A stretch of DNA of 61,277 nt from an uncultured Gammaproteobacteria bacterium. GTDB lineage: Bacteria > Patescibacteriota > Patescibacteriia > Patescibacteriales > UBA12465. Under the pieces are notes generated by a model. That model made no database searches. It saw only the letters and a program-made list of their open reading frames with translations, and was not told the origin of the DNA. Shown here piece by piece: positions 37,988-59,628 of the stretch (position 1 is the stretch's first letter; the number at the start of each line of letters is the position of its first letter). Where the stretch lies: NCBI GenBank assembly GCA_964587195.1, contig CAZPKN010000003.1, positions 1-61,277 of the forward strand, written 5' to 3'. Made by a program: the position numbers and the translations under genes.

Positions 37988-38052
37988 CGCAGCGGTAGCG
38001 CAGTTGGCTGTTAACCAATTGGTCGTGGGTTCGAATCCCACCCCGGGAGCCA
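37978..38052 (+). tRNA. tRNA-Asn (GTT)
   Basis: Acceptor TCCCGGG/CCCGGGA, anticodon arm GTTGG-CTGTTAA-CCAAT, T arm GTGGG-TTCGAAT-CCCAC, encoded CCA. Confidence 0.97.
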
Positions 38053-39645
38053 ACGTAGATTAAGCGAGGTTAAAGCCTCGTTTTTTCTTTTATTTTCGCC
38101 AAAATATGTCGGTTCGAACCTTGCCATTTCGGCATTAAATTTTTCGACGCTATTTCGGAGCGGAATAAGCCAATTATGATAAGAAATGCTAATGTTTTTA
38201 CCAATTATTGCTTGGTTCGAACCTAACTTCTTAATGATGTTATTTCGTGTTTCTTTGTCTCCTTTATCAAACTCTTTTCGAGCTTGAGCACAGAAAATAA
38301 AATTTTCTTTGGTAAGCTCTATTAATTCTGCCTTGCTTGGTTTTGTCTTAACTTCATTTTGGCTTAAAGCTTCAATCTCGGCTTTTAATTTAGTGCGCTC
38401 AGTTAAATAATCAGCATCGTCAAGCATTTTCTTCATTCTCATACTGTTAAGTTCAGATAGTTGATCTTCTAAATCTTTTATTTGCTTTTCTATATCTAGC
38501 TTAGCTGGTTTTTCTGTTTTATCTTCTTCTGTTTTATTCTTTTCTAAATAATCTAAGGCTAAGCTTAAAAACTGGGGATGCATTTCCAGTCTTTTAAGAT
38601 CGTTTTTAACTTGTTTTTCTAATTCTTCTTCTTGAATAGAACCTTCTTTACAGTCAATTTCTTTTTTCTTATGGGTGCAGTGATAGTAGTGATAGGTTTT
38701 AACTTCATTATCTTCTTTAATATATTTTCTTTTTCTCTCAGCGGTAATAGCACAACCACAAAAACCACAGGTAAAAGTGCCTGAGTACATAAAGTCTAGT
38801 TTTTTAACATTTCTTTTATTGCCTCTTAAGCCTAATAATTCTTGAATACGATTATAGTCTTCAAGACTGATTATCGGCTTATGTTTACCAGGGCTTTCTT
38901 TGCCGTTATAAGTGATAATACCGGCATAAAATGAACTAGTTAGCATTTTATACCAAGTACTTCGAGCCAGTGGCCTGCCGCCAGTTTTAGCCTTAGCTCT
39001 AGTTGTGTATTTCCATTCATTATTTAATTTATCGAGCACCTCTTGGGCGGTATAATTGCCAGTTAAAAAGAGCTTAAAAGCCTCTTTTAGAAGCGGTGCA
39101 CGTTTTTTATCGATAATTAGTGTTCTTTGACCTTTCTCAAGCCTCATATCGTTTAAATAGCCCTCAGGAGCCACTCCAGGAAGCCATCCGAGAGATACTT
39201 TCTTCTCTAAACCACGTTTTACATCCTTACCTAGTTTAGAGGAGAAATATTGAGATTGACTAAGAGCTAGTTGAAGCATCATTATACCTTCCGGAGAATT
39301 GTCAAAATTATATGATCCGAATTTTAAGTCTTTAATAATGCCAGTACGCACCAAATAGGTAATAGTTGAGGCATCTATTTCGTTTCTTGATAATCTATCA
39401 GGATGCCAGGCAATAATACCATGCGCTTCACCCTTTCTTATCCTTTTAATCATATCAGCGAAAACTGGCCGATTGTATGGCGAAAAAGCGCTATGTTTTT
39501 CTTCCATAACTTCAACAATTTCTAAGCCGCTAAAAAACTCGCGCACTTTATCCATTTGACTTTCAATGGATAAAGCTTGTCTTTCATCGCCTTCGGTTGA
39601 TTTGCGGACATAGGCAAAATATTTAATTGGATTTTCGCTGTTCAT
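38011..39645 (-). CDS. Large serine recombinase (integrase)
   Basis: AYVRKST catalytic Ser, recombinase domain, CGFCG...YYHC zinc ribbon, coiled coil; start MNSENP at 39645; C-terminus reads through the tRNA antisense. Confidence 0.95.
   Translation of the reverse strand: MNSENPIKYFAYVRKSTEGDERQALSIESQMDKVREFFSGLEIVEVMEEKHSAFSPYNRPVFADMIKRIRKGEAHGIIAWHPDRLSRNEIDASTITYLVRTGIIKDLKFGSYNFDNSPEGIMMLQLALSQSQYFSSKLGKDVKRGLEKKVSLGWLPGVAPEGYLNDMRLEKGQRTLIIDKKRAPLLKEAFKLFLTGNYTAQEVLDKLNNEWKYTTRAKAKTGGRPLARSTWYKMLTSSFYAGIITYNGKESPGKHKPIISLEDYNRIQELLGLRGNKRNVKKLDFMYSGTFTCGFCGCAITAERKRKYIKEDNEVKTYHYYHCTHKKKEIDCKEGSIQEEELEKQVKNDLKRLEMHPQFLSLALDYLEKNKTEEDKTEKPAKLDIEKQIKDLEDQLSELNSMRMKKMLDDADYLTERTKLKAEIEALSQNEVKTKPSKAELIELTKENFIFCAQARKEFDKGDKETRNNIIKKLGSNQAIIGKNISISYHNWLIPLRNSVEKFNAEMARFEPTYFGENKRKNEALTSLNLRWLPGWDSNPRPIG
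38034..38054 (+). repeat. tRNA 3'-end direct repeat, left copy (contains the inferred attL core GAGC at 38047-38050)
   Basis: AATCCCACCCCGGGAGCCAAC, identical to 59803-59823. Confidence 0.9.
38062..38086 (+). terminator. Element-supplied terminator for tRNA-Asn
   Basis: CGAGG / CCTCG stem plus T run, lying antisense inside the recombinase CDS. Confidence 0.65.
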
Positions 39646-39808
39646 ATGATTATTTTTACATAACAAAAAGGGACGGTCCTGAGCACCCAACTAAATATCG
39701 TCAAGAAGACAATACTCGTCGGCAGAACCATCCCTTTTTGGGGGCGAGTATAAAAAAACTTCTTGACTCATTGTATTCAGTTGGGTGCTACTTATATATT
39801 ACTACATT

Positions 39809-39994
39809 TTAGATTTTTTTCAAGTTTCTATGGTATTGCTTATGCTGAGATTTAGTCATCGGCTTATAAGTCTGCTTCACTAGCCATAATAAGTCAGCCG
39901 TCTGTTTATAGGCCTCATCGTCACTTATTTCGATTTTAAAGATCTTCTGATAAAGCTTCTTGAATTCTTTCATGAAGCTTGGCGTAATCTCCAT
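39809..39994 (-). CDS. 61-aa helical protein upstream of the recombinase, possible directionality factor or regulator
   Basis: Compact ORF co-oriented between rep and the recombinase; function inferred from position only. Confidence 0.65.
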   Translation of the reverse strand: MEITPSFMKEFKKLYQKIFKIEISDDEAYKQTADLLWLVKQTYKPMTKSQHKQYHRNLKKI

Positions 39995-40032
39995 ACAAGA
40001 GCGGGAACTATGTTTATTTTACAAAGGATAAT

Positions 40033-40821
40033 TTAGAAACCGTATAAACGGTATTGAATCTTGCCTAACCAGTCGGAACGATATGATTTTTCAAACAATG
40101 GTGGAATATTACCAATAGCGTTAGTTATAAATTCTTTTACTTCTTTAAAGACGGTAATAATAATTGGCTGCTCGAGATTTTTAGAGGCTAATATTTTTCT
40201 CATTCCAAAATAGCGGATATCAAATAAATTTTTGCCAACATATTTAGAAACATATAAGCCTAAATGATTAACATGTTTTATTCTATTTATTTTTACAAAT
40301 CCATTTTGCCAAATAGTTTTTAATTCATCAGAAGCCATTTCAAAATTGACTAATAAATGATAATGAACGGCTCCGCCATTTGGTTTTGGTCTGCCGTAAT
40401 AGTCGTTATCTGATTGAAATTCAGGAATAGCAATATATTTTAAATTTGGTCTTTTTCTCTTTAGTCTTTTAATAAACTTTTTAAATATGGGGTTAGCTTC
40501 AACTAAGCTAGGCACATCAGAATCAAAGGTTAAGGTGATAAATACTTTTAAATCAGGATTAGCGTTTATTAAACGAACAATTCTTGATCTAGTGCGGCGA
40601 AGGGAAAAGTCTCGCATTACTTCAACTTGAAAAGCTTTATTGGCGCATTCTTTAATCTGCTTCATTATCTCTTCTTTTGTGCGACGTTTGGCAGCTTTCT
40701 TCTTTTTCTTCTTTTGGCCAACATGAATAGGCGTCTCGTATTGGTAGAGCTCCACCTTCTTCCCGGATATTATCAATTTGTTCTGATATGTGGCCATCTT
40801 TGAGGAGGGAATATAACTCAT
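40033..40821 (-). CDS. HUH rolling-circle replication initiator (pII functional equivalent)
   Basis: Motif I FITLTF, motif II VHYHLLVN, motif III YVSKYVGK. Confidence 0.9.
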   Translation of the reverse strand: MSYIPSSKMATYQNKLIISGKKVELYQYETPIHVGQKKKKKKAAKRRTKEEIMKQIKECANKAFQVEVMRDFSLRRTRSRIVRLINANPDLKVFITLTFDSDVPSLVEANPIFKKFIKRLKRKRPNLKYIAIPEFQSDNDYYGRPKPNGGAVHYHLLVNFEMASDELKTIWQNGFVKINRIKHVNHLGLYVSKYVGKNLFDIRYFGMRKILASKNLEQPIIITVFKEVKEFITNAIGNIPPLFEKSYRSDWLGKIQYRLYGF

Positions 40822-40993
40822 TAATGACGGAGCTATATTCTTGCTGATATGAATTAAGTTTTCGAACTAAAAGCTCGAAATCAGTAGTTGAGTCAGTTTT
40901 TATTCTTCTAGTAATTCCAAATTTTAAGGTTTTAATTCTTTCTCGAAGCCAAAGGATGTAATCAAATTCTTTTTTAATGTTTTTATATATCAT
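40652..40993 (-). CDS. Hypothetical protein overlapping the rep 5' end
   Basis: 113-aa ORF in a different frame from rep; coding status uncertain. Confidence 0.4.
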   Translation of the reverse strand: MIYKNIKKEFDYILWLRERIKTLKFGITRRIKTDSTTDFELLVRKLNSYQQEYSSVINELYSLLKDGHISEQIDNIREEGGALPIRDAYSCWPKEEKEESCQTSHKRRDNEAD

Positions 40994-41020
40994 ATATTTT
41001 TATCTAATATTCGTAGTGAC

Positions 41021-41155
41021 GGCCCGGTGTGTGCGTATGGTCAAGTTAATTATATTAGGGAAGGGCCGGGCCTCATTTCTAGTCTTAACTCTCATTTACC
41101 GTCTGCCATTTTTCTTTTTTGGCTCCCCCAAGGGGATGCCGCCAAAAAAGAAAAA
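41021..41155 (-). promoter_or_regulatory. Candidate phage intergenic region: plus-strand origin and packaging-type hairpin
   Basis: Minus-strand AACTTG/A at 41047-41041 inside a GGCCCGG/CCGGGCC inverted repeat; 15+5-bp hairpin at 41109-41155. Confidence 0.55.
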
Positions 41156-41368
41156 AACTGCAGCAGCCGGTCGGATCTTTAAATTTTAAAGGGAGCGGAT
41201 TGTCTATCTGTGGCTTTTCATTTTAGCGTCAGCTTATCACCCTTCAAGGTAGTACAAGTCTCCACCTTGACTGTCGCAAGCAATCAGACGCTGTCTTATG
41301 CCTCGCCGATAGATAATCTAAGGCGACATTATCCGGCAATTTAAAAATCAGTCGCCAATTTAATTTTT

Positions 41369-42578: not shown

Positions 42579-42582
42579 ATAA

Positions 42583-42858
42583 TTATTCTCTTAAACCAGA
42601 ATTATTAATTAATATTTTTATAGCCATAATTGACCATAAGAAAGGATAAACTGAAAATATAAGACCAACTATTTGCCATAAGGTGTCTGTTGGAAAAATA
42701 AAATCTATCAGGCTAGACCACTGTCGAATCATTCCGAAGAAGATTGTAATGTTAGACCAGGGAATCAGGCTATTAACCGCTTGTCCGATAGCGTAAAGCA
42801 GCCCTGATATAAAAGAAGTGACTAAAACTACTTTGATAAATTGAATTATTGCATTCAT
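42583..42858 (-). CDS. pVI-like minor coat protein
   Basis: 91-aa hydrophobic protein between the pIII-like and pI-like genes. Confidence 0.7.
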   Translation of the reverse strand: MNAIIQFIKVVLVTSFISGLLYAIGQAVNSLIPWSNITIFFGMIRQWSSLIDFIFPTDTLWQIVGLIFSVYPFLWSIMAIKILINNSGLRE

Positions 42859-42862
42859 ATGT

Positions 42863-44650
42863 TTATTGTCCGCCTGTCATCTTGTCGATGAAGGCTTTAC
42901 CATTTTTAATTACCCAAAAACCAAAAAGTCCCCACAAAGCCCATTTAATAATTGTTTTAATGGCGAAGAATAATTGATTAGTTTTTTCGGCATTAACTGT
43001 TCCCAGAGTTGAGCTAGAAGTAAAAATATCTTTACCCCATAAAACAACCGTGGCGGTCGAGGTCCCTGTAGTTGGAATTTGAGCGGTTAAATTTCCATTT
43101 ACCGGCGAAAGAAAAGCAAGTTCCGACATAACATCTTTATTAGCACTTGCTTTCCAGGCATCATTTAAATTAGTGTAAATATTAAAAGGGAAGACATTTT
43201 TTAATATGTTTCCTGCTTTATATATTCCGTCAGTTGCCATGGTTGTGAATTTATTTCCGGCAATAATAAAACCTAATTTAAACTTACAGCCAATAACTGT
43301 TAAATTAAGAGCCGGCACATCAACGCCAAATATTTCTGGCGGCGGTGTATTCCAATCTTCTTCACTACAAGCCGCCTCATACATAACCGCATCATCATAA
43401 AAAGGATTAGTTGAGCTAGCGGCTAAAATATCAGCCACAGTAGGAATTTCAGTCGGTTGCCAATTAACCGTTACTACATGAGGAATAGTTGTTGTCGCTT
43501 CTACGTCTCCTAAAGTAGGCGACCAATATGCTGCCAAATGTCCAATTACCTCGTAATGAACATAACCAGTCGTTGAAGCGTTTCCCGTTAAAGTAAAATA
43601 ACTGTTGCCGTTTGATTTGCTTGTGAAAAAGCCTGTTGTATCGATAATTGTGCTAGTAGCAATAAATGTGCTGGTAGACCAATCGGGGCTAATTTCTTTT
43701 ATTTCAATATAATCATAAGGGGTAAAAACATCTTCGTTATATAGATAACGAACAATAGCGGTTGATTGATTAGAAAAATTATAAGGATTAGAGAAAAAGA
43801 ATAAACTGATATTATTAGCGTTTGGGTTGCTAGCACATTCACCGCAATCAACTGGGCAAGTAGAGCAATTTTCTATTTCTGTATGACATAAAGTGTCACC
43901 GCAATAATATGGCGAAACATATTCGCCATAATTTAAAACTACAATTCCTAAAACAGAAATATAGCCAGGATTACCATCAGACCAAGAAAAAGATTGTCCC
44001 GGTAAATCTTGGATTTTATAAGCCGAGGAAACGCCAACTCCAAAATTCCAACCTTGACCGACAGCGCCGTTGGTAAGAGTAAATCCTGACGGAGGTGTTA
44101 CTGATTCATTGCCTGACCAAAACCAAGAAACCACCATTGAATTATCATTTGTAAGAGATATATAACTAGAATCTTTTGAATAACCATTATTGTATGGAGT
44201 CGTTACCCAGGGATTATTTTGATCAACATTGCAATAAACTTGAATTTGAGCCGCTTGGTCATTTGATCCGTTCCAATTAAAATTTAAGTAATGCGTGCCT
44301 GCTTCTGGACTTAATAATGAAAAAACATATCCGCCCATATTGCTTTTAATCGGACCACTTGACCAAGTGTTTAATTGTTGAGTCATTGATGTGCCCCCAT
44401 AATCTATTGTCACAGAATCTGAATACCAGCCTTGTGTCGCCACTAAAAGTAGGGAATTGTAGCAATCCGTCGGTACTGTAAAAGGAATAGAACGAACATT
44501 ACCATTTAAGTTTCCCGGGTTAGTGCTGTCTATGTATGTACTAGCTCCTAAATAAATATTTTCTTGAGCGTGAGTTATTTTACTCATGCCAATAAAAGAA
44601 AAGAAAACAATAAATAAGAAGACAGTAATTTGTAGTAATTTATTTTTCAT
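42863..44650 (-). CDS. pIII-like adsorption protein
   Basis: Signal peptide ending THA, beta-rich domains, Cys-rich linker, C-terminal TM anchor; canonical gene position. Confidence 0.75.
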   Translation of the reverse strand: MKNKLLQITVFLFIVFFSFIGMSKITHAQENIYLGASTYIDSTNPGNLNGNVRSIPFTVPTDCYNSLLLVATQGWYSDSVTIDYGGTSMTQQLNTWSSGPIKSNMGGYVFSLLSPEAGTHYLNFNWNGSNDQAAQIQVYCNVDQNNPWVTTPYNNGYSKDSSYISLTNDNSMVVSWFWSGNESVTPPSGFTLTNGAVGQGWNFGVGVSSAYKIQDLPGQSFSWSDGNPGYISVLGIVVLNYGEYVSPYYCGDTLCHTEIENCSTCPVDCGECASNPNANNISLFFFSNPYNFSNQSTAIVRYLYNEDVFTPYDYIEIKEISPDWSTSTFIATSTIIDTTGFFTSKSNGNSYFTLTGNASTTGYVHYEVIGHLAAYWSPTLGDVEATTTIPHVVTVNWQPTEIPTVADILAASSTNPFYDDAVMYEAACSEEDWNTPPPEIFGVDVPALNLTVIGCKFKLGFIIAGNKFTTMATDGIYKAGNILKNVFPFNIYTNLNDAWKASANKDVMSELAFLSPVNGNLTAQIPTTGTSTATVVLWGKDIFTSSSTLGTVNAEKTNQLFFAIKTIIKWALWGLFGFWVIKNGKAFIDKMTGGQ

Positions 44651-44858: not shown

Positions 44859-45107
44859 CTATTTGATCGTGCCCCTGATTTTCTTTACGCCCCACATAAT
44901 ACCCTTGATAATCAAAGTTAAAGTGATGACGGCGCCGAACACTCCGAGGATATAAGGGATAAACGCATAAGCGTTATCCTTTAATAAATCGGTGGTGCTA
45001 GCTAAAGAATTAGTCAGGTCCGGATCGGCGGCCGCATGAGCGAAATTAGTACTTAAACCAAGTGCGCCTATGAAAGCCATAAATCCGAGTCCAATCTTCT
45101 TAAACAT
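44859..45107 (-). CDS. Major coat protein (pVIII-like)
   Basis: Signal peptide ending AHA, acidic N-terminus, one TM helix, basic tail KKIRGTIK; SD-like GGGGGTG 6 nt before ATG 45107. Confidence 0.85.
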   Translation of the reverse strand: MFKKIGLGFMAFIGALGLSTNFAHAAADPDLTNSLASTTDLLKDNAYAFIPYILGVFGAVITLTLIIKGIMWGVKKIRGTIK

Positions 45108-45130
45108 ATTTTTCACCCCCTTTCTAGTCT

Positions 45131-45232
45131 TTATTTATTTTTGTTAATAAAGAACGGAATAAGAATAAGACCGAGAAATCCAGCCCATAGGCACCATTTT
45201 AATAATTCATTTACTGCTTCAAATTCGGTCAT
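45131..45232 (-). CDS. 33-aa pIX/pVII-like minor coat protein (not in ORF track)
   Basis: MTEFEAVNELLKWCLWAGFLGLILIPFFINKNK*. Confidence 0.7.
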   Translation of the reverse strand: MTEFEAVNELLKWCLWAGFLGLILIPFFINKNK

Positions 45233-45236
45233 ATAA

Positions 45237-45335
45237 TTACAAACTATCTTTTATCTTTTTAAGCCCCCAAATTATCAAAAGGATGATAATTAAAGGCGTG
45301 TAGATCTGAACGAATTCAATGCCATTTATTTCCAT
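45237..45335 (-). CDS. 32-aa pVII/pIX-like minor coat protein (not in ORF track)
   Basis: MEINGIEFVQIYTPLIIILLIIWGLKKIKDSL*. Confidence 0.7.
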   Translation of the reverse strand: MEINGIEFVQIYTPLIIILLIIWGLKKIKDSL

Positions 45336-45493
45336 ATTTTTTTAGCTACATAAATTATGATAATTGCCCCTAAGGCTATTTTTACGAAGAAAAATAAGCC
45401 GGCAATTGGCAATACGAAAGTCGCGCTTAAATTAACAATATTGTCAGCGCTGTCTAAAACTTGGTAATGGAATAAAATTTCATTGAAATTCAT
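45326..45493 (-). CDS. 55-aa single-TM protein (not in ORF track)
   Basis: MNFNEILFHYQVLDSADNIVNLSATFVLPIAGLFFFVKIALGAIIIIYVAKKIWK*; overlaps the next start. Confidence 0.65.
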   Translation of the reverse strand: MNFNEILFHYQVLDSADNIVNLSATFVLPIAGLFFFVKIALGAIIIIYVAKKIWK

Positions 45494-45560: not shown

Positions 45561-45857
45561 CTATTTCTTATCGTTTTCATTCTCAGACACGTAAATAGAA
45601 AGATAAGCTCTTTGCCTTACCCCATCGACATAGCTAAAAGGGAAGACATTAACCTCAAGCTCTACTTCTGAGCCGACTGCGCCAAAATCTCGGTCCAGTG
45701 GCACATTTACCTTTATTGGGTAAATACTGCCTAATGGGTCGATAAATAATGAGCGGACAACGCCGGGGACTCCGTCTTTACTGACGAAATCTTTTGTTTT
45801 ATCATCTTTGATTTTTCCTTTTAAAATAAACATAGTTTTATTGTTATTTTTATTCAT
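45561..45857 (-). CDS. pV-like ssDNA-binding protein
   Basis: 98-aa beta-rich protein from ATG 45857 (GGGGG upstream), first gene of the structural cassette; assignment mainly positional. Confidence 0.6.
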   Translation of the reverse strand: MNKNNNKTMFILKGKIKDDKTKDFVSKDGVPGVVRSLFIDPLGSIYPIKVNVPLDRDFGAVGSEVELEVNVFPFSYVDGVRQRAYLSIYVSENENDKK

Positions 45858-46807: not shown

Positions 46808-46982
46808 ATGATTTCTACTTTTAAAATATTCCCGCCTTTTGAGCAGGGAATATTTGCTATTCTATATAAATTTGTCAATAAGTCATGGTTTTAGGGAAAT
46901 TTTAGATTCATATTATTCTTATTATAAATTAAATTTAGAATCAAAACAAGTTGATAAATATTAGCCTATTTATGGACTTTTC

Positions 46983-47043
46983 AAATATTTACAAAATATT
47001 TACAAAATTAAAAATAATTGTTAAAGTAGAAGTAAAGTTTTAC
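46983..47043 (+). promoter_or_regulatory. Promoter/operator region of the XRE-glycosylation operon
   Basis: AAATATTTACA x2 (11-bp period), TTTACA-N17-TAAAGT with TGn, palindrome GTAAA-GT-TTTAC. Confidence 0.45.
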
Positions 47044-47064
47044 TAGAAAATAGTTAAACAAGAT

Positions 47065-47265
47065 ATGAAATCAAAAATCGGAGAGAATCTAAAAAAGTAT
47101 CGATTAGGTTGCGGTTTGTCACAGGAAGAATTAGCCTCTAAAGCTAATGTAACTTTTCATACTATTTCAAAAATAGAAACAGGTGCGACTAATGACCCAA
47201 GGGCCTTAACTCTTGAGAAGCTAGTTAAAGTTTTAGATATTAAAATTGATGATTTATTAAAATAA
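47065..47265 (+). CDS. XRE-family HTH repressor
   Basis: LKKYRLGCGLSQEELASKANVTFHTISKIETG pattern. Confidence 0.92.
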   Translation: MKSKIGENLKKYRLGCGLSQEELASKANVTFHTISKIETGATNDPRALTLEKLVKVLDIKIDDLLK

Positions 47266-47269
47266 AAAT

Positions 47270-48211: not shown

Positions 48212-48212
48212 T

Positions 48213-51151: not shown

Positions 51152-52245
51152 GCAAAGAAATAAAAATTTTACATATAATAGATTCCCTTGGACTTGGTGG
51201 CGCCCAAACTATTGTTAAAGGTATTTTTGAATATCAATTAAATAACCAAAATATATTTTTATTTGCATTAAGAAATAGAAATATTTTAATAGAAGTTAAG
51301 CACACTAATGTTCAGATCTTTAATTCATCTAAAAAATATTCTTTTAGACCTCTTTTTGCGTTAAAAGATCTAATTAAACGTGAAGAAATTACAATTTTAC
51401 ATTGCCATCTTTTTAAATCTCAGATTTTTGGCTTTCTTTTAAAAAAAATATGGTTTAAGAATGTGAAATTAATATTTCATGAACATGGTGAGATATTCCA
51501 AGGTTATATCACGTATAATTTATTTATGAGAGATGTCAAAAGTACTATAAATAAAATTATTGCCGTATCTAATGCCACAAAAGAAAAATTAATAGCTAAG
51601 GCCGGCATAGAAGAAAATAAGATAACCGTTTTATCAAATTTTGTTGATTTAAATAAATTTAATAGGAAAAATATTACTTGGAATATGGAAGGGGAAAGAG
51701 AAAAATTAGGTATTAAAAAGGGTGAATATGTAATAGGTTTTGTTGGCAGACTTGCAAAAGTTAAGGGTTGTGAGTATTTGTTGAAAGCGCTACCTTATTT
51801 AAACTTTTCCTATAAGGTTTTAATTGCTGGTGATGGCCCAGAAAGAAAAAAGCTTGAAAAATTGGCAGTAGAATTAAAAATTACTGAAAGAATTATATTT
51901 TTAGGTTATAGAAGTGATACGGTCTTTATTTATTCCTTGTTAGATGTTTTAATTATGCCCTCTTTGAGCGAGTCTTTCGGTTTGTCTGTTATTGAAGCAC
52001 AGTCTATGGGCACTCCAGTTATATCGTCTAATATTCCTGCATTAAATGAAATTATTATTAATAACGAAAACGGCTTGATGTTTGAGGTTAAAAAATCTCT
52101 AGATCTTTCTCTGAAGATAGAGCTGATGTATAAGGATGAAAAAGCTAGAAATAGGTTTACAAAAAATGGATTAGAAAGTGTCAAAAAGTATGATTTAGAA
52201 AATTATATTAATAATTTGAATAAAATTTATGAAGATATTAAATAA
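51148..52245 (+). CDS. GT4 glycosyltransferase
   Basis: LGLGGAQ, VGRL, GYRSD and ESFGLSVIEA motifs. Confidence 0.92.
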   Translation: MSKEIKILHIIDSLGLGGAQTIVKGIFEYQLNNQNIFLFALRNRNILIEVKHTNVQIFNSSKKYSFRPLFALKDLIKREEITILHCHLFKSQIFGFLLKKIWFKNVKLIFHEHGEIFQGYITYNLFMRDVKSTINKIIAVSNATKEKLIAKAGIEENKITVLSNFVDLNKFNRKNITWNMEGEREKLGIKKGEYVIGFVGRLAKVKGCEYLLKALPYLNFSYKVLIAGDGPERKKLEKLAVELKITERIIFLGYRSDTVFIYSLLDVLIMPSLSESFGLSVIEAQSMGTPVISSNIPALNEIIINNENGLMFEVKKSLDLSLKIELMYKDEKARNRFTKNGLESVKKYDLENYINNLNKIYEDIK

Positions 52246-53050
52246 TATTAAACATAATCAGATACAACACGACAAATTAGCTTCAACTTATAATATTAAA
52301 CATTCCGAAATTTATAATATATACGAACAAAGTAGGTTAAAAAAAAGTATAGATTTTTGTATCAAATCTGTAAATTCTAATTCTTCAGTAAAGGTTTTAG
52401 ATTTTGGCGCTGGAACTGGAAATCTTTCCCATATATTTCTGGAAAAAGGTTGCACTGTTACTGCCTGTGATGTATCGCAAAAGTCTCTAAATATTCTAAA
52501 AGATAAATTGCCTTCTAATAATCTTGATACTGTTTTATACAACGGTCTTAAATTGCCGTTTGAGGATAATACTTTTGATATTACTGCAACGTATTCAGTT
52601 TTACATCATATACCTAATTATATAAGTGCCGTAAAGGAAATGATTAGAGTCACAAAGAAAGGTGGATTGATTTGTATTGATCATGAAGCAAATGAAAATA
52701 AATGGAATCCATCAATTGAATTAATAGAGTATAATAATTTAACTAAACAAACTATATTTGAACATATTACAAAATTATTAATTGCCAAGGAATTATTAAC
52801 CTTTGATTTTATTAAAACTGTTTTTATCAAATTTTTTATAAATAAAAAATATCAAAGAGAAGGTGATATTCATGTTTGGAGGGATGATCATGTAGAATGG
52901 AAAAAGGTTAATGAGCTTATTAAAAAAGAAAAATGTGAGATTTTTAAGGAAGAAGATTATTTAATGTATAAACCCAAGGGAGGATTAGAAATATATGAAA
53001 AATATAGTAAGTTAACAAATGATACTAAATTAATTGTAATAAAGAAATGA
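52229..53050 (+). CDS. Class I SAM-dependent methyltransferase
   Basis: VLDFGAGTG, LPFEDNTFD and SVLHH motifs. Confidence 0.9.
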   Translation: MKILNNIKHNQIQHDKLASTYNIKHSEIYNIYEQSRLKKSIDFCIKSVNSNSSVKVLDFGAGTGNLSHIFLEKGCTVTACDVSQKSLNILKDKLPSNNLDTVLYNGLKLPFEDNTFDITATYSVLHHIPNYISAVKEMIRVTKKGGLICIDHEANENKWNPSIELIEYNNLTKQTIFEHITKLLIAKELLTFDFIKTVFIKFFINKKYQREGDIHVWRDDHVEWKKVNELIKKEKCEIFKEEDYLMYKPKGGLEIYEKYSKLTNDTKLIVIKK

Positions 53051-53988
53051 AAAAAATAATTATTACTTTAACTAAAACAATAATAGCAATATCGCTATTA
53101 GGATATTTGTTTTCACTAGTTGATTGGGATACTTTTTTAAGTGCAATTAAAAATGCTAATATTTTTTATATTTTAGTTTCTGCCTTTATGGCATATTTTG
53201 GTATTTATATTAGTATATTAAAATGGAGTATTTTTTTAAAAAATTATGGAATTGTTATTTCTAAATTAAAACTTTATTCTATTTATTCAATAAGCGCTTT
53301 TTTTAATAATTTTTTACCAACTACTGTAGGAGGTGATTTTTATAGAATTATTAGTTTAAATAAACAAATTCCAGTCAAGAAGAAAGAAATTATTTCATCT
53401 ATTATTTTAGAAAGAGGATTTGGTTTTTTGTCTTTATTCCCAATTAACTTTTTATTAGCACCTTTTTATTATAAATTTTTATTAAATAAGAGCTTTCTAT
53501 TAATTCAGGTGCTTATTGTAATAGGTTTTATTTCAATAATTTTTTTAATTTTTAAATATAATTTACTAATTAGATTAAAAAATAAACTAATAAAAAAAGA
53601 ATTTATTATATTAAACAAATTTCATAGCTTAGTTATTTCTATTTCAAATATAAAGAGTAAAAAAACGTTGATATACGGATTCTTGAACTCAATTGTTTTT
53701 TGTTTGACTATTGCTACTGCGAGATATATTTTATTTTTAGCATTCAATATTCAAGTAGATTTTTTTTATATATTGCTAGTTAGTTCTATAGCGCAAATTA
53801 TAGGAATACTTCCAATATCTCTTAACTCAATAGGTGTAAATGAAGGATTGAGCGTTTTTTTATTCAGTCTCGTTGGCGTTCCTATAGAAATATCTTTAGT
53901 TGTCGCATTAGTTGGAAGAGTATCTCTAATAGCGACTAGTTCTCTGGGGGGATTATTTTATTTTTTTGATAATAAAATTAAATTTTAA
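53047..53988 (+). CDS. Flippase-like membrane protein (LPG synthase TM / UPF0104 family)
   Basis: FFNNFLPTTVGGD and LPISLNSIGVNE motifs; multi-TM. Confidence 0.85.
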   Translation: MKKIIITLTKTIIAISLLGYLFSLVDWDTFLSAIKNANIFYILVSAFMAYFGIYISILKWSIFLKNYGIVISKLKLYSIYSISAFFNNFLPTTVGGDFYRIISLNKQIPVKKKEIISSIILERGFGFLSLFPINFLLAPFYYKFLLNKSFLLIQVLIVIGFISIIFLIFKYNLLIRLKNKLIKKEFIILNKFHSLVISISNIKSKKTLIYGFLNSIVFCLTIATARYILFLAFNIQVDFFYILLVSSIAQIIGILPISLNSIGVNEGLSVFLFSLVGVPIEISLVVALVGRVSLIATSSLGGLFYFFDNKIKF

Positions 53989-53999
53989 AAAATATTTGC

Positions 54000-56180
54000 T
54001 TAATTTAACCTTATTAACGTTAAAATAGGGTAAATATTTAATTTAGATTTTTGGTCATTAAATAAATTTTTCTTTGGATAAAATTGTTGAACTATTTCTC
54101 CATTTTCAATTATACTTCTTAGAACAGGATTAGAGTCTTTATGTTTATAGGAGTCATAGGTCAAAATAGCATATACATTTTTTTCTTTTAATAAAATATT
54201 GTCAAGATGATCATCATTCATTATGACAGGAGATCCGGTATAAATATCCCAATCTTGATTCTCTTCTATTATATATTTATTGTTATTCCATGCTATATAG
54301 TTCTTAAAAAAATCAATCTGATCTTCAGTGTAATTGTATTTTGGGTATTGAAAAGATCCATTAGAACTAATAATCTCTGTGTCCCTTAGATGATATTTAG
54401 CCTTATAAATTCTAGAAAAATTAAATAGTTTGCCAACCAAAGGATATTCTATAATAACCGTGCTTTCTTTAGGTATATATGCTACTAAATTATTCCACGG
54501 AACCGATGCTTCTATGGTCCACCCAAGATAGCCAGTTTTCATTAAATTTAAGTTATATAAATTGCTAATAATAAATACTATGAATATAAAATAAAATATT
54601 ATTTTAGATACTTGAAGTCTAACGAAATAAAAGCCATAAGCCATAATCGCTACCAACATAAAACTAATGGGAAATAGATATCTTACGTCAAGTATGTTTT
54701 TACCAAAAACGTAACCCAATAAAATTATTAAACCGACAATCCACGCCAATAATATTTTTAAAAATTTATCTTTTTTAAATAAATTAATAATTGTTATTAG
54801 TATAATAATTATTAATCCAATATTTTTTTGATAATAAAAAATGTTTATAATATTTTGCAGATGATTACTTAATTTAAATGTGATATTTCTTATAATAAAA
54901 TTATAAATTGAATTATCATAAAATATTATGTAAACTAGAAATAGAGATAGTATTAACAACAATGAAATAGTAATATAAAAAACATTTTTTCGGTCTCTAA
55001 TTAGTTTATTGAATACTAGCATTGAATAAAGAAGTATTAACGAGAAGAGTCCAATATTGTGTCCAATAAAGATATTTGAGAAAGTTATTAATAGAAACAG
55101 TAAAGAGCTGATTAAAAAATCCTTCAAATTATTAGATTCGTATATTTTTTTACCTATTAAAATGCCCGTTATTAGGATGATTGCAGAAATAACATATTCT
55201 CTCGCTATCATGGAATATAATATAAAATACCAATTAAGCCCAAATAAAAAAACCCCTAACAATGCTATTTTTTTTAGTTTAAATATATTTTTTATCAATA
55301 TATATATTAAAAAGGATAGTAATATTTTTAGTACTACATTAAAAAATCTTAATTGATAAAAAATATCATCAAAAATTCTATAAAAAAAAGACTCTATCAA
55401 TGAATATACTATATTTCGATTATATGCTATTCCCGTACTTGTTTCGCCATAAAATTTCTGGTGATCTATAATATTTGAAACAGATAAATTCGTGTAGGCC
55501 TCATCTATATGGAATGGTACTTTATTTATAAAATATAGAGTTAAAATTGAAGACATTATTATAATAATGAGTAACAAAAAACTATAAATCACGCCTTCCT
55601 TGTAAAAAAAACATACCATTTTTTTTATAATAGGAATCTTATTTATCCTTGGAAACTTATCGGCAAATTCAGTTTTTCTTTTATCCTCAGCTATTTGTTC
55701 AGTTATTTGTTCTCGGTCTATCTCTTTTTCCACCCTCTCTCTATTATGCCAAAAAGTTAAGCCACCACTTAAAATCGCTAGTACTGTTATAATAACTTGA
55801 TATTTATTTATCCAAGCTAAATCAATAAACTTTTCTAAATAACTAAATTGCCCCAGCGCTATTATCAGCAAAAGAAAAAGAAAAAGATAGGAAATAATAT
55901 CCCACCTTTTTTCAACAATGAAATTTAAAACATTAATTAATATCTTTTTTGTCTGACCGTGAAATGGCCATTTGATATTTAGAATAAAACCTTTTATTTT
56001 TATAATTATGTCCCTCTCAAAGTTAACAAAATAAAATATCGCTAGAAATATAGCTAGGGAATTAGTAATTACCGTAAAAGCATCTTGTATATTTTGGCCA
56101 ATATTAAATAGACAAAAAATAGCTACTATTAATAATAATATTGATATTCCGTATTGTTTTATAACTCTTATCATAATCAT
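54000..56180 (-). CDS. GT-C fold glycosyltransferase (ArnT/PMT-like) with extra N-terminal TM region
   Basis: FHIDEAY, FGLNWYFILYSMIAREY and RYLFP motifs; start coupled to the upstream stop (TAATG). Confidence 0.8.
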   Translation of the reverse strand: MIMIRVIKQYGISILLLIVAIFCLFNIGQNIQDAFTVITNSLAIFLAIFYFVNFERDIIIKIKGFILNIKWPFHGQTKKILINVLNFIVEKRWDIISYLFLFLLLIIALGQFSYLEKFIDLAWINKYQVIITVLAILSGGLTFWHNRERVEKEIDREQITEQIAEDKRKTEFADKFPRINKIPIIKKMVCFFYKEGVIYSFLLLIIIIMSSILTLYFINKVPFHIDEAYTNLSVSNIIDHQKFYGETSTGIAYNRNIVYSLIESFFYRIFDDIFYQLRFFNVVLKILLSFLIYILIKNIFKLKKIALLGVFLFGLNWYFILYSMIAREYVISAIILITGILIGKKIYESNNLKDFLISSLLFLLITFSNIFIGHNIGLFSLILLYSMLVFNKLIRDRKNVFYITISLLLILSLFLVYIIFYDNSIYNFIIRNITFKLSNHLQNIINIFYYQKNIGLIIIILITIINLFKKDKFLKILLAWIVGLIILLGYVFGKNILDVRYLFPISFMLVAIMAYGFYFVRLQVSKIIFYFIFIVFIISNLYNLNLMKTGYLGWTIEASVPWNNLVAYIPKESTVIIEYPLVGKLFNFSRIYKAKYHLRDTEIISSNGSFQYPKYNYTEDQIDFFKNYIAWNNNKYIIEENQDWDIYTGSPVIMNDDHLDNILLKEKNVYAILTYDSYKHKDSNPVLRSIIENGEIVQQFYPKKNLFNDQKSKLNIYPILTLIRLN

Positions 56181-57664
56181 TAAAAAGCAAATACCCAAAT
56201 AGGATCTTGTTGCCCGGTTTTATTATAAAAAATTAATTTTTGTTGATTAATTAAATCATTAATCTCTCTATCTAACCTAATTCCAGTCATATTGTCAACT
56301 ATAATATAGCCAGTCTTTGTTTCTGTTAACTCTTTTAACTGCTCCGCAGTTTTAATAGTAATAGCATTATTATAATATTCTCTTTCGGCCAACTTGCTTT
56401 TATTTAATTTGCGTCCATCTAAGCCAATTGCTAGCCAATAATCACTTCTGCCTAAATAGACTTTATCAAGTTGTGTAAAAGCAGAAACAATTACCTTATC
56501 TTCGCTCCAACCCTGATCTGCAATCGCTTGATAGGCACTTTTGAAATCTGGTTGAGGAGTATGAGGCTCTAAGTAATAATAAGTAATCGGTTTTAAAACA
56601 AAAGTATTGGTCTGTAAATAATTAGAAGCAGTAATTACTAAGATTAAAATACCTAAACCAAGTAGCCAGGAATATTTAAATTTTTTGCTTACTATATTAA
56701 TTACATAAGCTGTTAGGATAAATAGGATGGGTAGGATGAAAAATAAATAACGAAAATGTAAAGTATCAGCGCTAAAAGTTATTATTAAATAGGGAAGTAA
56801 ATAAGCAACAATTAGACCAATTTTGGTTTTTATGTTTTTTTCTTTTAAAACTATAATAACTGTCCCCGCTAAAGCCATAACTACAATTAGGGGTAAATAA
56901 TCAATTAGAAAATTCTGATAATTATGACCAATAAAAAAATTATTAGTGCTAGCTTTTCTAAAAAAGTCTAAAAATAATTTAACTAATAGAGAGATTATTC
57001 CTAAGCCGCTTAAAGCAATTACTATTAATTTGTTTTTGTCTTGAATTATTTTTCGCAACTCTTCTTTTTTAGTATTAAATAAATTAATGAGTAGTATAAG
57101 GGCATAAATACCAATTAATAAATAACCAAAATAATGGCTTAAAATAGCCGCTAAGGTAACTAGTACCAATAAGACTAGTTTTTTATAGGAAAATTTATTG
57201 AGCAGGGAATTAAAAAGGTAGAGAGCGAGAAGAAAGAAGAACTGTAGTTGGATATACATTCTCGCCTGCCTGCTCCAGGCTATTTCCCAATAAGATAAAG
57301 TGGTTAAAATAGCGGCGAAGAAGCCTACTTGTTTATTAAAATATTGACGCCCTAAGAAATAAATCATTAATATAACCCCGATTCCAAAAATGACTGCCGG
57401 TAATCTTGTGGCTATTGGATTAAAACCGCCTAGCTTAACCGCCCCAGTAATTAAATAATTATTAAGAAGATAATGAGGTCCATAAATTTTGTCTGAGTCA
57501 AGTATGGGGTAGCCTTTTTCTAGAGTGCTCAACACTGCATTTAAGGTATAGCCTTCGTCTATCCAGTAAGACTGTTGGTCAATTTTATAGAATCGCAAAA
57601 ACAAACCATAAATAATAATTATAGAAAAAAAAGAAAATATTAAAATTTTATGATATTTTTGCAT
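56180..57664 (-). CDS. GT-C fold glycosyltransferase (ArnT/PMT-like)
   Basis: SYWIDEGYT, RLPAVIFG, SRQARMY and RYLFF motifs; ~11 TM segments. Confidence 0.85.
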   Translation of the reverse strand: MQKYHKILIFSFFSIIIIYGLFLRFYKIDQQSYWIDEGYTLNAVLSTLEKGYPILDSDKIYGPHYLLNNYLITGAVKLGGFNPIATRLPAVIFGIGVILMIYFLGRQYFNKQVGFFAAILTTLSYWEIAWSRQARMYIQLQFFFLLALYLFNSLLNKFSYKKLVLLVLVTLAAILSHYFGYLLIGIYALILLINLFNTKKEELRKIIQDKNKLIVIALSGLGIISLLVKLFLDFFRKASTNNFFIGHNYQNFLIDYLPLIVVMALAGTVIIVLKEKNIKTKIGLIVAYLLPYLIITFSADTLHFRYLFFILPILFILTAYVINIVSKKFKYSWLLGLGILILVITASNYLQTNTFVLKPITYYYLEPHTPQPDFKSAYQAIADQGWSEDKVIVSAFTQLDKVYLGRSDYWLAIGLDGRKLNKSKLAEREYYNNAITIKTAEQLKELTETKTGYIIVDNMTGIRLDREINDLINQQKLIFYNKTGQQDPIWVFAF

Positions 57665-57871
57665 GTGGATAACTTTTTACTTATTAATATTTTATCATAT
57701 TTTTAGCCAAAATATAAGGGTATTTTAAATAATTTAAAAAATATGAAAAATAACCTTGTTTTTTATCATTTATAGTATTATAATAAATATATTAAATAGT
57801 AAATAGAGCTAATTTAATTTTGCTGTATTTGCTGCAAAAATTTTAAAATATTTTATAATTAATTTGAGTCT

Positions 57872-59467
57872 ATGAAAAAGTTTAAAAACTACTTTTCCAA
57901 AATCTTCAAAACTAAAGCGGTATTAGCAATGTTGATTATTGGTCTCGCCATCTCTCCGACGGTTTTTGCTCAGTTTGCTCGTCAAACTGGAGGTCCCGAT
58001 TGGGGCTATGGTTACGGTTACGGTTACGGCTATGGCTACGGCTTTGACGGTGGCACTATTGCTGGTTATCGTACAACGGGAGCTGCATCTTCAACTTATG
58101 CTTATGGCTACGGCTATGGTTATAAAGCTGATGGTGTGACATATGATGCAAGTAATGGGTTTGAAGTTACGCCAGCTACTATGAGTAGTTTGGTCCAAGC
58201 AGGTATTATGATTCCTAGCGGATCAAACCCTTCTAATACTAGTGCAATTACTTTCGCGCAACAAGTCGCTCTTGCACCAGTAACTGGAGTTTCTGTTGTT
58301 ATTCCGCAAGGGGTTGTTATGACATCCAATTCTGGAAATTTTGATATGGCTGATTTAGCAGCTGGGGCAGCGAGTTTAACCGGCTTATCTACTGATGTTG
58401 ATCTTGCTGGTTCGCTTTCGTTTGGTGTGCCTAGTGTAGGGTTAACACTTAATCCAGCTATTCAAATTTCTATCGCAGTTGATTCTGCTTTAGAAGGTAA
58501 AACATTAAAAATTTACAGAAAGGATGCCGGCGGTTCATGGGTTGAAAGTCCTTCCGGAACAGATGCAACTTGTACTGTAACTAGTGGTGTTTGTACTTTT
58601 AGTACTACTCATCTATCATCTTTTGGTGCCGGTGATGTTTATACTTGGAATTATGGATCATATGGGTCTTGTAGCGTTTCTTGTGGTGGAGGAACACAAA
58701 CCAGAACTGCTACTTGTAAAAATTCTAGCGCTGAAACCGTAGCTAACTCTTTCTGTTCTGGAACAGCAGTAACATCTCAATCTTGCAATACTCAAGCTTG
58801 TAGCTCTGGCGGAGGAGGAGGCGCAATTGTTAATAATTGTAGCTCTGTCGTTTATGCAGATTGGGGTTCTTGTGTTAATGGTTTTCAATTTAGATCAGTT
58901 TTAAGTCAAACTCCAGCTGGTTGTTCATTAACTGCTCAACAGCAAATAGATTCTTCTAGAGCCTGTGTCTTAGGCGAAGAGCCTATCGTTGTTACCCCTC
59001 CAGTTGTTACTCCAGGTAGTTCTGAAGCTAGAGCTGATGTAAAACAAGTGATGAATAATGAAAGATCATTAGTTTCTAAGATTAATACCGCTCTAACTAA
59101 TCGCTTAGCTGGTCGTATTTTGCTTCAGGTTGAAGAAAAAGGACAAGCTTGGTATATTGAGCCAGTTAGTAAGCAAAAACATTTCATGGGACGTCCAGCT
59201 GACGCCTTTGATATGATGCGTCGCTTTGGTCTTGGTATTAGTGAAGCTAATTTTTCTAAGTTCGAAAAATCAGGCGTTCCAGCTCGTTTTGCTGGTCGCA
59301 TATTCTTAAGAGTTAAAAGCAAAGGTGAAGCCTACTATATTAATCCAGTTGATATGAAAATGCATTACTTAGGTCGTCCAGCTGATGCCTTTAACTTAAT
59401 GAGAAGTAAAGCTTTGGGAATTTCTAACGCAAATATCAGACAAATCCCAGTGGGTGAAGTTAAATAA
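57872..59467 (+). CDS. Secreted surface protein with (GY)n tracts, a TSP1 repeat and a duplicated C-terminal domain
   Basis: Signal peptide; WGYGYGYGYGYGYG; WNYGSYGSCSVSCGGGTQTRTATC; two copies of (RL/RF)AGRI(L/F)L.V..KG.A(W/Y)YI.PV. Confidence 0.85.
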   Translation: MKKFKNYFSKIFKTKAVLAMLIIGLAISPTVFAQFARQTGGPDWGYGYGYGYGYGYGFDGGTIAGYRTTGAASSTYAYGYGYGYKADGVTYDASNGFEVTPATMSSLVQAGIMIPSGSNPSNTSAITFAQQVALAPVTGVSVVIPQGVVMTSNSGNFDMADLAAGAASLTGLSTDVDLAGSLSFGVPSVGLTLNPAIQISIAVDSALEGKTLKIYRKDAGGSWVESPSGTDATCTVTSGVCTFSTTHLSSFGAGDVYTWNYGSYGSCSVSCGGGTQTRTATCKNSSAETVANSFCSGTAVTSQSCNTQACSSGGGGGAIVNNCSSVVYADWGSCVNGFQFRSVLSQTPAGCSLTAQQQIDSSRACVLGEEPIVVTPPVVTPGSSEARADVKQVMNNERSLVSKINTALTNRLAGRILLQVEEKGQAWYIEPVSKQKHFMGRPADAFDMMRRFGLGISEANFSKFEKSGVPARFAGRIFLRVKSKGEAYYINPVDMKMHYLGRPADAFNLMRSKALGISNANIRQIPVGEVK

Positions 59468-59491
59468 TCTAGTTATAAAATAGAATATTAC

Positions 59492-59518
59492 AAAAGACCT
59501 GTGTTTACAGGTCTTTTT
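59492..59518. terminator. Bidirectional terminator, copy 2
   Basis: AAAAGACCTGT-GTTT-ACAGGTCTTTT, differing from 45952-45976 by one loop base. Confidence 0.8.
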
Positions 59519-59579
59519 GTATATTAGAGTGTAGTTAAAAATATTATTATAATAGTGTTTAGGATTGAGGCCTTATATT

Positions 59580-59628
59580 TTAACTATTATTAGCCACACT
59601 AGTTCGAACTTTGTCCACGACCCCGAGC
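59580..59628 (-). other. Inferred attR P-arm encoding the alternative recombinase C-terminus
   Basis: Minus strand reads LGVVDKVRTSVANNS* in frame from the shared GAGC; contains GTTCGAA. Confidence 0.6.

Follow-up and report, generated by a model that had tools for sequence, protein, structure and literature searches.

A probable temperate inovirus-type phage carrying a glycosylation block, integrated at a tRNA-Asn gene of a Falkowbacteria-like bacterium

We analysed a 61,277-nt stretch of DNA (contig CAZPKN010000003.1, ENA ERZ724080 NODE_477, hereafter the window, to which all coordinates refer) in which the genes of a filamentous phage and a block of glycosylation genes follow the 3′ end of a tRNA-Asn gene. 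Positions 38051–59628 (21,578 bp) probably form a single mobile unit, the integrated genome of a temperate phage of the inovirus type whose host is a Falkowbacteria-like bacterium of the candidate phyla radiation (CPR). The main phage genes are identified by family matches, the insertion is seen against an empty site in a related scaffold, its termini recur in other loci, and its relatives occupy several different tRNA genes. An earlier note on the same DNA had proposed a filamentous prophage of a CPR bacterium at this place. The whole analysis was computational; searches with the pI-type ATPase, the recombinase and a 269-amino-acid (aa) protein of the element returned about 35 loci, and numbers such as L092 or L124 denote related loci found by the searches.

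The element follows ordinary host chromosome. Positions 1–37,600 hold a string of genes of the sizes of those for ribosomal proteins, EF-Tu and SecY, then ScpB, a GtrA-family protein, DnaG and RpoD, with the ribosomal operon upstream of the insertion. The host RpoD is 82% identical to that of a Candidatus Falkowbacteria metagenome-assembled genome and 91–96% identical to metagenome proteins; over the Falkowbacteria and Patescibacteria metagenome-assembled genomes the identity spans 82–92%. Since its named matches are all Falkowbacteria or "Patescibacteria group", the host is a CPR bacterium, as the earlier note had supposed. The GC content falls from ~0.40 in the host part to ~0.35 at 38–47 kb and 0.22–0.33 at 47–57.8 kb, then rises to ~0.43 at the gene for a 531-aa protein, and the GC skew flips from 38,000 onward.

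The boundaries were obtained by comparison with two other contigs. L121, an 835-kb scaffold, shares the ScpAB-S11-GtrA-DnaG-RpoD synteny of the window and has the tRNA-Asn 3′ exon without the element; there, the homologue of window positions 59803–59916 stands right behind the exon. Thus, 38055–59802 is an insertion relative to L121. At the other end, L124 (JBJSVZ010040468.1) matches the window up to the GAGC of TTCGAACTTTGTCCACGACCCCGAGC and its conserved terminus ends exactly at 59628, after which the flanks are unrelated; a similar arm is found in L104. The boundaries 38051–59628 given in the earlier note are borne out by these two comparisons. The crossover on the tRNA side (attL) lies within GAGC at 38047–38050, and attL (...GGGAGC/CAACGTAG, the slash marking the junction) and attR (...CCCGAGC/TAAT) have just GAGC in common, with no long direct repeat. 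The open reading frame (ORF) of the recombinase crosses this core into the tRNA, and its computed C-terminus would read ...RWLPGWDSNPRPIG in the integrated and ...RWLGVVDKVRTSVANNS in the excised form.

An exact 21-nt repeat of the tRNA-Asn 3′ end (38034–38054 and 59803–59823) was considered as the att pair of the phage and rejected, because the terminus in L124 stops at 59628 and the relatives have only ~7 nt in common with their tRNAs. From 59803 onward the window again matches the L121 flank. The segment 59629–59823, which includes the second copy of the repeat, is most plausibly what remains of an earlier insertion at this tRNA; its GC-rich piece has an RNA fold z of -5.5. We also rejected an old disrupted tRNA copy at 59560–59802, where the 5′ part of the tRNA finds no significant match, its score being equalled by 454 of 500 shuffles, and an Rfam search of 59400–61277 returned nothing beyond chance.

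The genes next to the tRNA form the module of an inovirus, which agrees with the type of prophage claimed in the earlier note. Searches with pI, Rep and the coat protein matched the Zot and M13 protein I families, G2P-type Rep families and the CTXphi Cep family, respectively. The ATPase pI further matches phrog_197 (3.3e-14) and the M13 protein I family phrog_1675 (3.4e-7), its match to the Zot family stands above the cutoff (Table 1), and its sequence shows a Walker A motif and, at the C-terminus, zinc-ribbon motifs of the Cys4 type. Rep shows HYH and YVSKY motifs; its true start may be an internal Met, which would give 210 aa, and L002 has an alternative gene call. In the 85-aa coat protein, a signal peptide and an acidic N-terminus precede a transmembrane segment and a basic C-terminus. 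No sequence family matched the 90-aa candidate single-stranded DNA (ssDNA)-binding protein, whose homologues have the same length. Its AlphaFold model, built from 18 sequences, has a pLDDT of 73.5; Ff gene V protein takes the first 14 places among its PDB matches (E ~0.03–0.14, probability 0.72–0.91), and among viral structures Orf1 of B5, a filamentous phage of Propionibacterium, matches best (TMq 0.63). The ORF calls and profile searches agree with the minus-strand gene order read earlier, and none of the phage ORFs in the window is truncated. None of the ORFs of the element matched a secretin family, in keeping with the absence of pIV that the earlier note had reported.

Between pI and Rep, that note had placed a hairpin-rich intergenic region. 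A structured part (40994–41368) is indeed present, in which no shuffle folds as well and a perfect 15-bp hairpin stands at 41109–41155, but the region also contains two conserved ORFs (113 and 98 aa). The 98-aa ORF, similar to ArdC-N below the cutoff, occurs in every relative, is 57–98% identical in more than 20 loci and runs antisense to the phage genes in all of them. This arrangement is unusual for an inovirus, and the product might have an anti-restriction or ssDNA-binding function. The 113-aa ORF and the 61-aa gene between Rep and the integrase are the small candidates for a recombination directionality factor; for the 61-aa protein, a role as such a factor or as a regulator is a guess. 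Nothing in Pfam, PHROGs, NCBIfam or a PDB profile search matched the 269-aa protein that heads the structural operon.

The large serine recombinase (LSR) abuts tRNA-Asn(GTT), again in agreement with the earlier note, and PF00239, PF07508 and PF13408 all score above cutoff in it, with XisF/Ccr-like NCBIfam matches below cutoff. At least 25 related prophages were found, and in every locus with a visible end the LSR ORF runs into a tRNA 3′ end. The window, L092, L106 and L108 use tRNA-Asn, and L088, L089 and L103 an intron-bearing tRNA-Asn; L104 and L093 use tRNA-Gln, L087 and L110 tRNA-Trp, and L097 tRNA-Ser. In L006, an LSR-like 3′ end follows tRNA-Asn. In 10 loci the phage side is conserved up to TTGGCTC or TTGGCAC (TGGCAC in L110), joined to Asn, Gln or Trp tRNAs. 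Only these ~7 nt, TTGGC(T/A)C, are common to the different tRNAs, in keeping with a serine recombinase whose core, placed at the CCA end, is very short. The junction in L097 (tRNA-Ser) differs, so the evidence for the core does not extend to it. From one tRNA to another, the downstream halves of the targets bear no resemblance. In L113 (18332–18380), the LSR abuts a 24-nt tRNA-Asn fragment followed by unrelated DNA, with no tRNA nearby, which suggests that an LSR can also target the tRNA fragments that other elements leave behind.

The relatives fall into two clades by the 269-aa protein, which is more than 80% identical in clade 1 and ~62% in clade 2, where a LexA-like repressor replaces the regulatory end. 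L092, a clade-1 phage on an 881-kb contig, is 82–100% identical to the window in most phage proteins. The 595-aa putative adsorption protein is the most variable structural gene, with 38% identity in L088 and replacement in clade 2. Close variants (79–98% aa identity) occur in different hosts and at several tRNAs and imply that the phages moved recently. One locus, L086 (1–1506), is a mosaic of the clades, with clade-1 structural genes (90–98%) beside a LexA-like repressor and a 36% identical 269-aa homologue of clade-2 type.

Beyond the conserved promoter and regulatory region, here called J, lies the cargo, which measures ~12.6 kb rather than the ~13.5 kb estimated earlier. Its XRE-family protein is the best conserved cargo product (98.5% identical in L093 and L124), and its position suggests a lysogeny repressor, which usually stands there and is followed by conversion genes. 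The glycosylation operon encodes a family 2 glycosyltransferase (GT2; PF00535, 7.8e-32) with C-terminal transmembrane segments, a UDP-glucose/GDP-mannose dehydrogenase-like protein (UGDH-like), an NAD epimerase/dehydratase, two GT4 glycosyltransferases, an S-adenosylmethionine (SAM)-dependent methyltransferase and an LPG_synthase_TM membrane protein, at a GC content of 0.22–0.33 against ~0.40 in the host. Homologues of the 494-aa GT-C protein are named ArnT-like or GT39, and those of the 531-aa secreted protein are 91% (L124) and 64% (L125) identical. As predicted from its families, this enzyme set fits the synthesis of lipid-linked sugars and their transfer outside the membrane; as a guess, the acceptor would be the 531-aa protein with its thrombospondin type-1 (TSP1) repeat. 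The likely effect would be a remodelled surface glycan or glycoprotein of the lysogen, that is, lysogenic conversion or superinfection exclusion. No GtrA flippase was found in the cargo, which has the LPG_synthase_TM protein instead, with a GtrA_DPMS_TM gene in the host part of the window. PADLOC returned a single generic methyltransferase match and no known defence system in the cargo, and IMG/VR held no relative of the cargo GT2 or PMT-like gene.

Table 1. Features of the element and its borders in the 61,277-nt window
Feature	Position	Strand	Evidence or remark
Host tRNA-Asn(GTT); 3′ end is the attB left arm	37978..38052	+	ARAGORN; Rfam 72.8 bits
Large serine recombinase (LSR), 544 aa	38011..39645	-	Pfam Resolvase, Recombinase and Zn_ribbon_recom; phrog_95 4.6e-76
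Conserved 61-aa protein between Rep and integrase	39809..39994	-	35–92% identical in relatives; no family match
HUH Rep, G2P-like rolling-circle initiator	40033..40821	-	PF23343 REP_ORF2-G2P 8.6e-15; phrog_3584, phrog_3419
113-aa ORF overlapping the Rep start, upstream	40652..40993	-	59–89% identical in L085, L088, L092, L097; called gene in L002
Structured non-coding region, candidate origin/packaging signal	40994..41368	-	DNA fold z = -5.0
ArdC-N-like ORF, 98 aa	41369..41665	+	PF08401 0.0047, below cutoff
pI/Zot-type morphogenesis ATPase, 283 aa	41727..42578	-	PF05707 2.3e-9, 37.4 bits against a cutoff of 20.3
91-aa protein with two transmembrane segments, pVI-like by position	42583..42858	-	85–98% identical in clade-1 relatives; no family match
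595-aa secreted protein, pIII-like (adsorption) by position	42863..44650	-	N-terminal signal sequence, hydrophobic C-terminus; no family match
Extra 54-aa protein with one transmembrane segment	44640..44804	-	Transmembrane scan; relatives
Major coat protein, 85 aa, pVIII/Cep-like	44859..45116	-	phrog_1109 "core encoded pilin" (CTXphi major coat) 4.6e-5; phrog_7106 1e-3
Three tiny ORFs (33, 32, 55 aa) with one transmembrane segment each, pVII/pIX-like by position	45131..45493	-	Conserved in clade 1
Candidate OB-fold ssDNA-binding protein, 90 aa, gene V-like	45561..45833	-	AlphaFold model and Foldseek
269-aa protein, first gene of the structural operon	45998..46807	-	53–93% identical; present in all relatives
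Conserved promoter/regulatory region J	46808..46985	.	Alignment of 8 loci; clade-1 homology ends, variable slot beyond
XRE-family helix-turn-helix (HTH) protein, divergent from the phage operon, candidate repressor	47065..47265	+	PF01381 1.7e-14; PHROG repressor families
Glycosylation operon: GT2, UGDH-like, epimerase, two GT4s, methyltransferase, LPG_synthase_TM	47270..53988	+	Pfam
732-aa polytopic membrane protein (no family match) and 494-aa PMT_2/ArnT-like GT-C	54000..57664	-	PF13231 2.2e-12
531-aa secreted protein: YG repeats, thrombospondin type-1 repeat, two C-terminal repeats	57872..59467	+	PF19030 3.6e-10; PF00090 3.5e-7
Right terminus, attR left arm TTCGAACTTTGTCCACGACCCCGAGC, degenerate tRNA-Gln-like 3′ segment	59603..59628	+	Identical in L124
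Relic outside the element: terminator-like hairpin, GC-rich structured 125 nt, 21-nt tRNA-Asn copy	59629..59823	+	Native flank after

We compared the linkage of phage and cargo in the other loci. L124 has the same phage genes (269-aa protein 93%, ssDNA-binding protein 95%) and the same two ends of the cargo (HTH 98%, GT2 97%, UGDH 98%, epimerase 96%, PMT-like protein 93%, 531-aa secreted protein 91%), and in both L093 and L124 the HTH-GT2-UGDH-epimerase block (94–98% aa identity) stands beside the same 269-aa gene. L124 also keeps the PMT/secreted-protein end and the identical right terminus with a different outer flank, and its cluster has been exchanged in the middle, as happens in O-antigen loci. 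Phage and cargo have diverged to a similar extent, at 95% and 92% nucleotide identity. In L093, the same cargo lies beside a decayed phage whose attL is in tRNA-Gln(CTG); at 10560–11044, a 9-nt microhomology, GAGAATGAA, joins the ssDNA-binding gene to the final 416 nt of the recombinase gene. This locus looks like a cargo that has outlived its phage, with the glycosylation genes retained. The recurrence of the block and terminus beside the same phage in two other contigs favours one 21.6-kb unit.

The position next to J resembles an accessory slot. In all seven of the other relatives compared here (L092, L103, L104, L106, L108, L110 and L113), it holds DNA methyltransferases or restriction-modification (RM) enzymes, and the genes found there include C5 and N4/N6 methyltransferases, type III mod/res, R.HinP1I with Vsr, GmrSD-like proteins, HNH nucleases, MazG and endonuclease VII. 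An outer ...GAGC/CAAC junction followed by a flank resembling the region downstream of a tRNA bounds insertions of 18.75 kb in L092 and 13.05 kb in L104. The slot of L092 (325–9772) carries an HNH nuclease, a fused C5 and N4/N6 methyltransferase, a GmrSD-like DUF262-HNH protein, an HD protein and a second LSR (29% identical), and its recombinase-proximal 4 kb are common to L097, a different phage at tRNA-Ser. On these comparisons, the glycosylation block would likely be packaged and move with the phage.

Several observations weigh against reading the insertion as a single mobile phage of this length, and they are set out here with the explanations to which they belong. The conserved part of all relatives ends at J (~46985): the homology of eight clade-1 phages stops there, and that of clade 2 just upstream of the LexA-like gene. 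J holds a degenerate ...(G/T)AGC(C/T)/TATTTTT, with GAGC, TAGC and GGGC forms, which could be attR; the phage would then measure 8.9 kb and the cargo would be an older neighbour. The insertion could be a stacked array of a phage of ~8.9 kb (38051 to ~46985), an older island without a recombinase (~46986–59628) and a still older piece (59629–59823), an account that we regard as possible yet rather doubtful. If an LSR needs only the tRNA half-site, each new element would come to lie directly after the tRNA and push the earlier one outward. Though their recombinases are 93% identical, the window and L092 have dissimilar outer left arms, and L104 has a site that resembles window positions 59603–59660 on both sides of GAGC; such nested tRNA-like arms, present in the window and L104, fit repeated stacking, as does the tRNA-Asn fragment used as a target in L113. 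The GC content of the cargo (0.22–0.33) also differs from that of the phage (~0.35). L125 carries a related PMT/secreted-protein module, and the 12.8 kb examined there, a contig cut at its glycosyltransferase end, have neither phage genes nor a terminus like the phage arm. A search for an inverted-repeat partner of the integrase-side arm gave only background scores across 46000–60500. Against stacking, the same phage with the same cargo ends is found again at another tRNA in L093 and with another outer flank in L124, at matching divergence, the cargo has no recombinase of its own, and J in clade 2 has no GAGC. The methyltransferase or RM genes beside J in the seven relatives fit an accessory slot better than chance neighbours. 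We keep to the 21.6-kb phage with its cargo as the probable unit; the extent proposed in the earlier note is backed by the termini and by the linkage in L124 and L093, and the joint movement of cargo and phage is likely, with stacking as its rival.

A different doubt concerns activity. The element may be an intact-looking prophage that no longer makes virions and persists as a domesticated glycosylation island, which we judge unlikely. Copies do decay, as L093 demonstrates, no terminal overlaps that would mark a circular or attP-form contig were found among 38 loci, and a scan of the 283-aa pI detected no hydrophobic segment, where canonical pI has a transmembrane segment after the ATPase domain. 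The phage ORFs of the window are nonetheless all full length, close variants sit in several tRNAs and hosts, and clade-2 pI is short too (233–247 aa in L089 and L090). The match of the 90-aa protein to gene V is weak, with TM-scores of 0.28–0.36 and E ~0.03 at best. An integrative plasmid-like or conjugative element with a Zot-like P-loop ATPase and an HUH relaxase-like protein is very improbable: Zot-family ATPases and HUH proteins do occur in other mobile elements and an ArdC-N-like ORF is present, but the coat protein matches the CTXphi Cep family with a pVIII layout, Rep matches phage G2P-type families and not relaxases, and the best structure matches of the ssDNA-binding protein are inovirus proteins. 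The genes also follow the Ff order, and profile searches found no type IV secretion system or coupling-protein genes in the element.

Some features of the surrounding DNA deserve mention. The 1.45 kb after the insertion (59824–61277) have no ORF longer than 80 aa, and only the first ~100 nt are conserved with L121. An 18-nt GC-rich palindrome, GCCTGCCTGCCGGTAGGC, has just two copies in the window, in inverted orientation at 37702–37723 and 59728–59749, one upstream of a small GIY-YIG ORF (37745–37987) beside the tRNA and the other inside the relic before the 21-nt repeat; it may be a host sequence of the repetitive extragenic palindromic (REP) kind or a mobile element. In the tRNA-Asn of L121 (11479–12124), an insertion of ~560 nt with a 119-aa HNH-type ORF interrupts the anticodon loop. 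Split copies, which ARAGORN missed, also occur in L088 (11590–11920, ~240 nt) and at the ends of L103 and L089, and the tRNA-Asn of the window has no intron. L005 and L006 were discarded as empty sites, the former stopping at the end of tRNA-Asn and the latter ~150 nt later, within the LSR-like 3′ end. L006 (CAZMYU010000013.1) bears the label "uncultured Gammaproteobacteria", yet its RpoD is 81% identical to that of the CPR host, and the contig is probably mis-binned or mislabelled.

We propose the following course of events. The LSR would have joined the phage site to the last bases of tRNA-Asn, with the crossover in or next to the GAGC of ...GGGAGC/CA. The left arm of the phage site would be 59603–59628 and the right arm would lie inside the 3′ end of the recombinase gene itself. 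Of its target, the enzyme would read mainly the tRNA half, that is, the T-arm and the 3′ strand of the acceptor, which would explain both the relatives in tRNA-Asn, Gln, Trp and Ser and how new elements could stack at one tRNA. Since the downstream half of the target is not conserved, attL could be used again as a target and elements could stack. Integration would give the tRNA a new CCA end and a terminator hairpin. We infer that the element would excise as a single circle, after which Rep would nick the structured origin (40994–41368) for rolling-circle replication and the gene V-like protein would coat the single strand for packaging. The soluble Zot-type ATPase and the small membrane proteins would then extrude the virions as filaments, for which a secretin would be unneeded because the host has no outer membrane. 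Between the regulatory end and the right terminus there would be an exchangeable accessory slot, occupied here by the glycosylation operon led by the candidate XRE repressor, which may act on a surface glycan.

Inoviruses of this general kind have been described. The parts of the survey of Roux et al. (2019) used here report inoviruses in CPR bacteria, integrases of the serine and tyrosine recombinase types and a size range of 5–20 kb (PMC6813254). The cryptic inoviruses of that survey share with our element a pI-like ATPase, small coat genes with a single transmembrane segment, a rolling-circle Rep and integration near tRNAs; those same parts hold no account of the lineage, att logic, glycosylation cargo or RM slot described here, and 21.6 kb is just above the range (PMC6813254). 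Four uncultivated virus genomes in IMG/VR (3300025855_000092, 3300013138_000284, 3300025877_000104 and 3300025600_000123) have a pI 79–94% identical to ours and are fragments without the cargo. The statement in the earlier note that well-studied integrating inoviruses use host XerCD or tyrosine integrases is incomplete, as serine recombinases are listed in the survey (PMC6813254) and the Ralstonia phages phiRSM1 and phiRSM3 (Askora et al.) have their own, acting at a tRNA-Ser 3′ end with a 13-bp att, according to the part of the source used (PMC4471427). From the same part, the phiRSM phages resemble our element in being filamentous, in carrying a serine recombinase for a tRNA 3′ end and in having a repressor gene beside attP; they differ in a small resolvase/invertase-type enzyme, 13 bp of identity, a Gram-negative host and a genome of ~9 kb (PMC4471427). 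The window has instead a 544-aa LSR, a core of ~4–7 bp, an attP inside the integrase ORF and several tRNA species as targets.

Comparison with the Ff phages (M13/fd/f1) and CTXphi reveals the same order of modules: candidate ssDNA-binding protein, tiny transmembrane proteins, coat, adsorption, pVI-like, pI/Zot, origin and Rep. Unlike them, our element has no pIV secretin, its pI lacks the transmembrane segment and ends in zinc ribbons, it has extra conserved genes of 269, 113 and 61 aa and the antisense ArdC-like ORF, and it integrates by its own LSR, where they use XerCD or do not integrate. It shares the absence of a secretin and the small core with Propionibacterium phage B5 and inoviruses of hosts without an outer membrane, and Orf1 of B5 is the best viral match to its ssDNA-binding protein. 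The B5 genome is ~6 kb, and we know of no integrase or cargo in it. Seroconverting phages such as Shigella SfV and SfX and Salmonella P22 carry gtrABC or O-antigen modification genes beside int/att; they are tailed double-stranded DNA phages with three-gene modules and tyrosine integrases. The likeness to our element lies in glycan genes close to att, the logic of a polyprenol-phosphate GT2 with a GT-C enzyme, and presumed receptor masking or superinfection exclusion, whereas here the carrier is filamentous, ~11 genes including sugar-nucleotide enzymes are present and the acceptor is possibly a protein. The recombinase resembles LSR integrases (phiC31, Bxb1, TP901-1; XisF/Ccr) in domain architecture, in its place beside attP and in very short site identity. 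Canonical LSRs have two recognisable half-sites per partner, whereas conservation here is limited to the tRNA side of attB and the integrase-gene side of attP, and the enzyme acts on a tRNA 3′ end.

The literature searched gave no account of an LSR with an ORF that extends across attP and with the CCA ends of several tRNAs as targets, nor of an exchangeable accessory slot, a 12.6-kb glycosylation cargo or a pI without a transmembrane segment. Thus, CPR inoviruses and inoviruses with serine recombinases are already published, and the kind of phage is known because of Roux et al., phiRSM and the IMG/VR fragments of this lineage; what is new is the way in which an LSR acts at the tip of a tRNA, together with the exchangeable slot and a glycosylation cargo of this size.

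Few inovirus genomes would be as large as the 21.6-kb unit, provided that all of it is packaged. The comparison with the relatives offers three testable ideas: an LSR aimed at the CCA end of several tRNAs through essentially one half-site, which is of interest for integrase tools; an exchangeable accessory slot in filamentous phages, usually filled with RM genes; and an assembly without a secretin or a membrane-anchored pI in a cell without an outer membrane. Phages of CPR/Patescibacteria are barely characterised and their inoviruses are known as database entries only; if the whole unit is packaged, this would be, to our knowledge, the first filamentous phage with a multi-enzyme pathway of surface glycosylation. 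Surface glycosylation matters for organisms that live by surface contact with other cells. We tentatively suggest, with more doubt than confidence, that CPR inoviruses are a lineage in which free filament length and a slot between the lysogeny promoter and attP allow cargo of 1.5 to more than 12 kb, mostly RM genes and here a complete pathway for protein or lipid glycosylation with its own secreted TSP1-repeat acceptor, and that a half-site LSR reading the T-arm and acceptor end allows multi-tRNA targeting and stacking. Such a phage would alter the cell surface of its episymbiotic, ultra-small host, and with it possibly how the host attaches to partner cells and how susceptible it is to phages.

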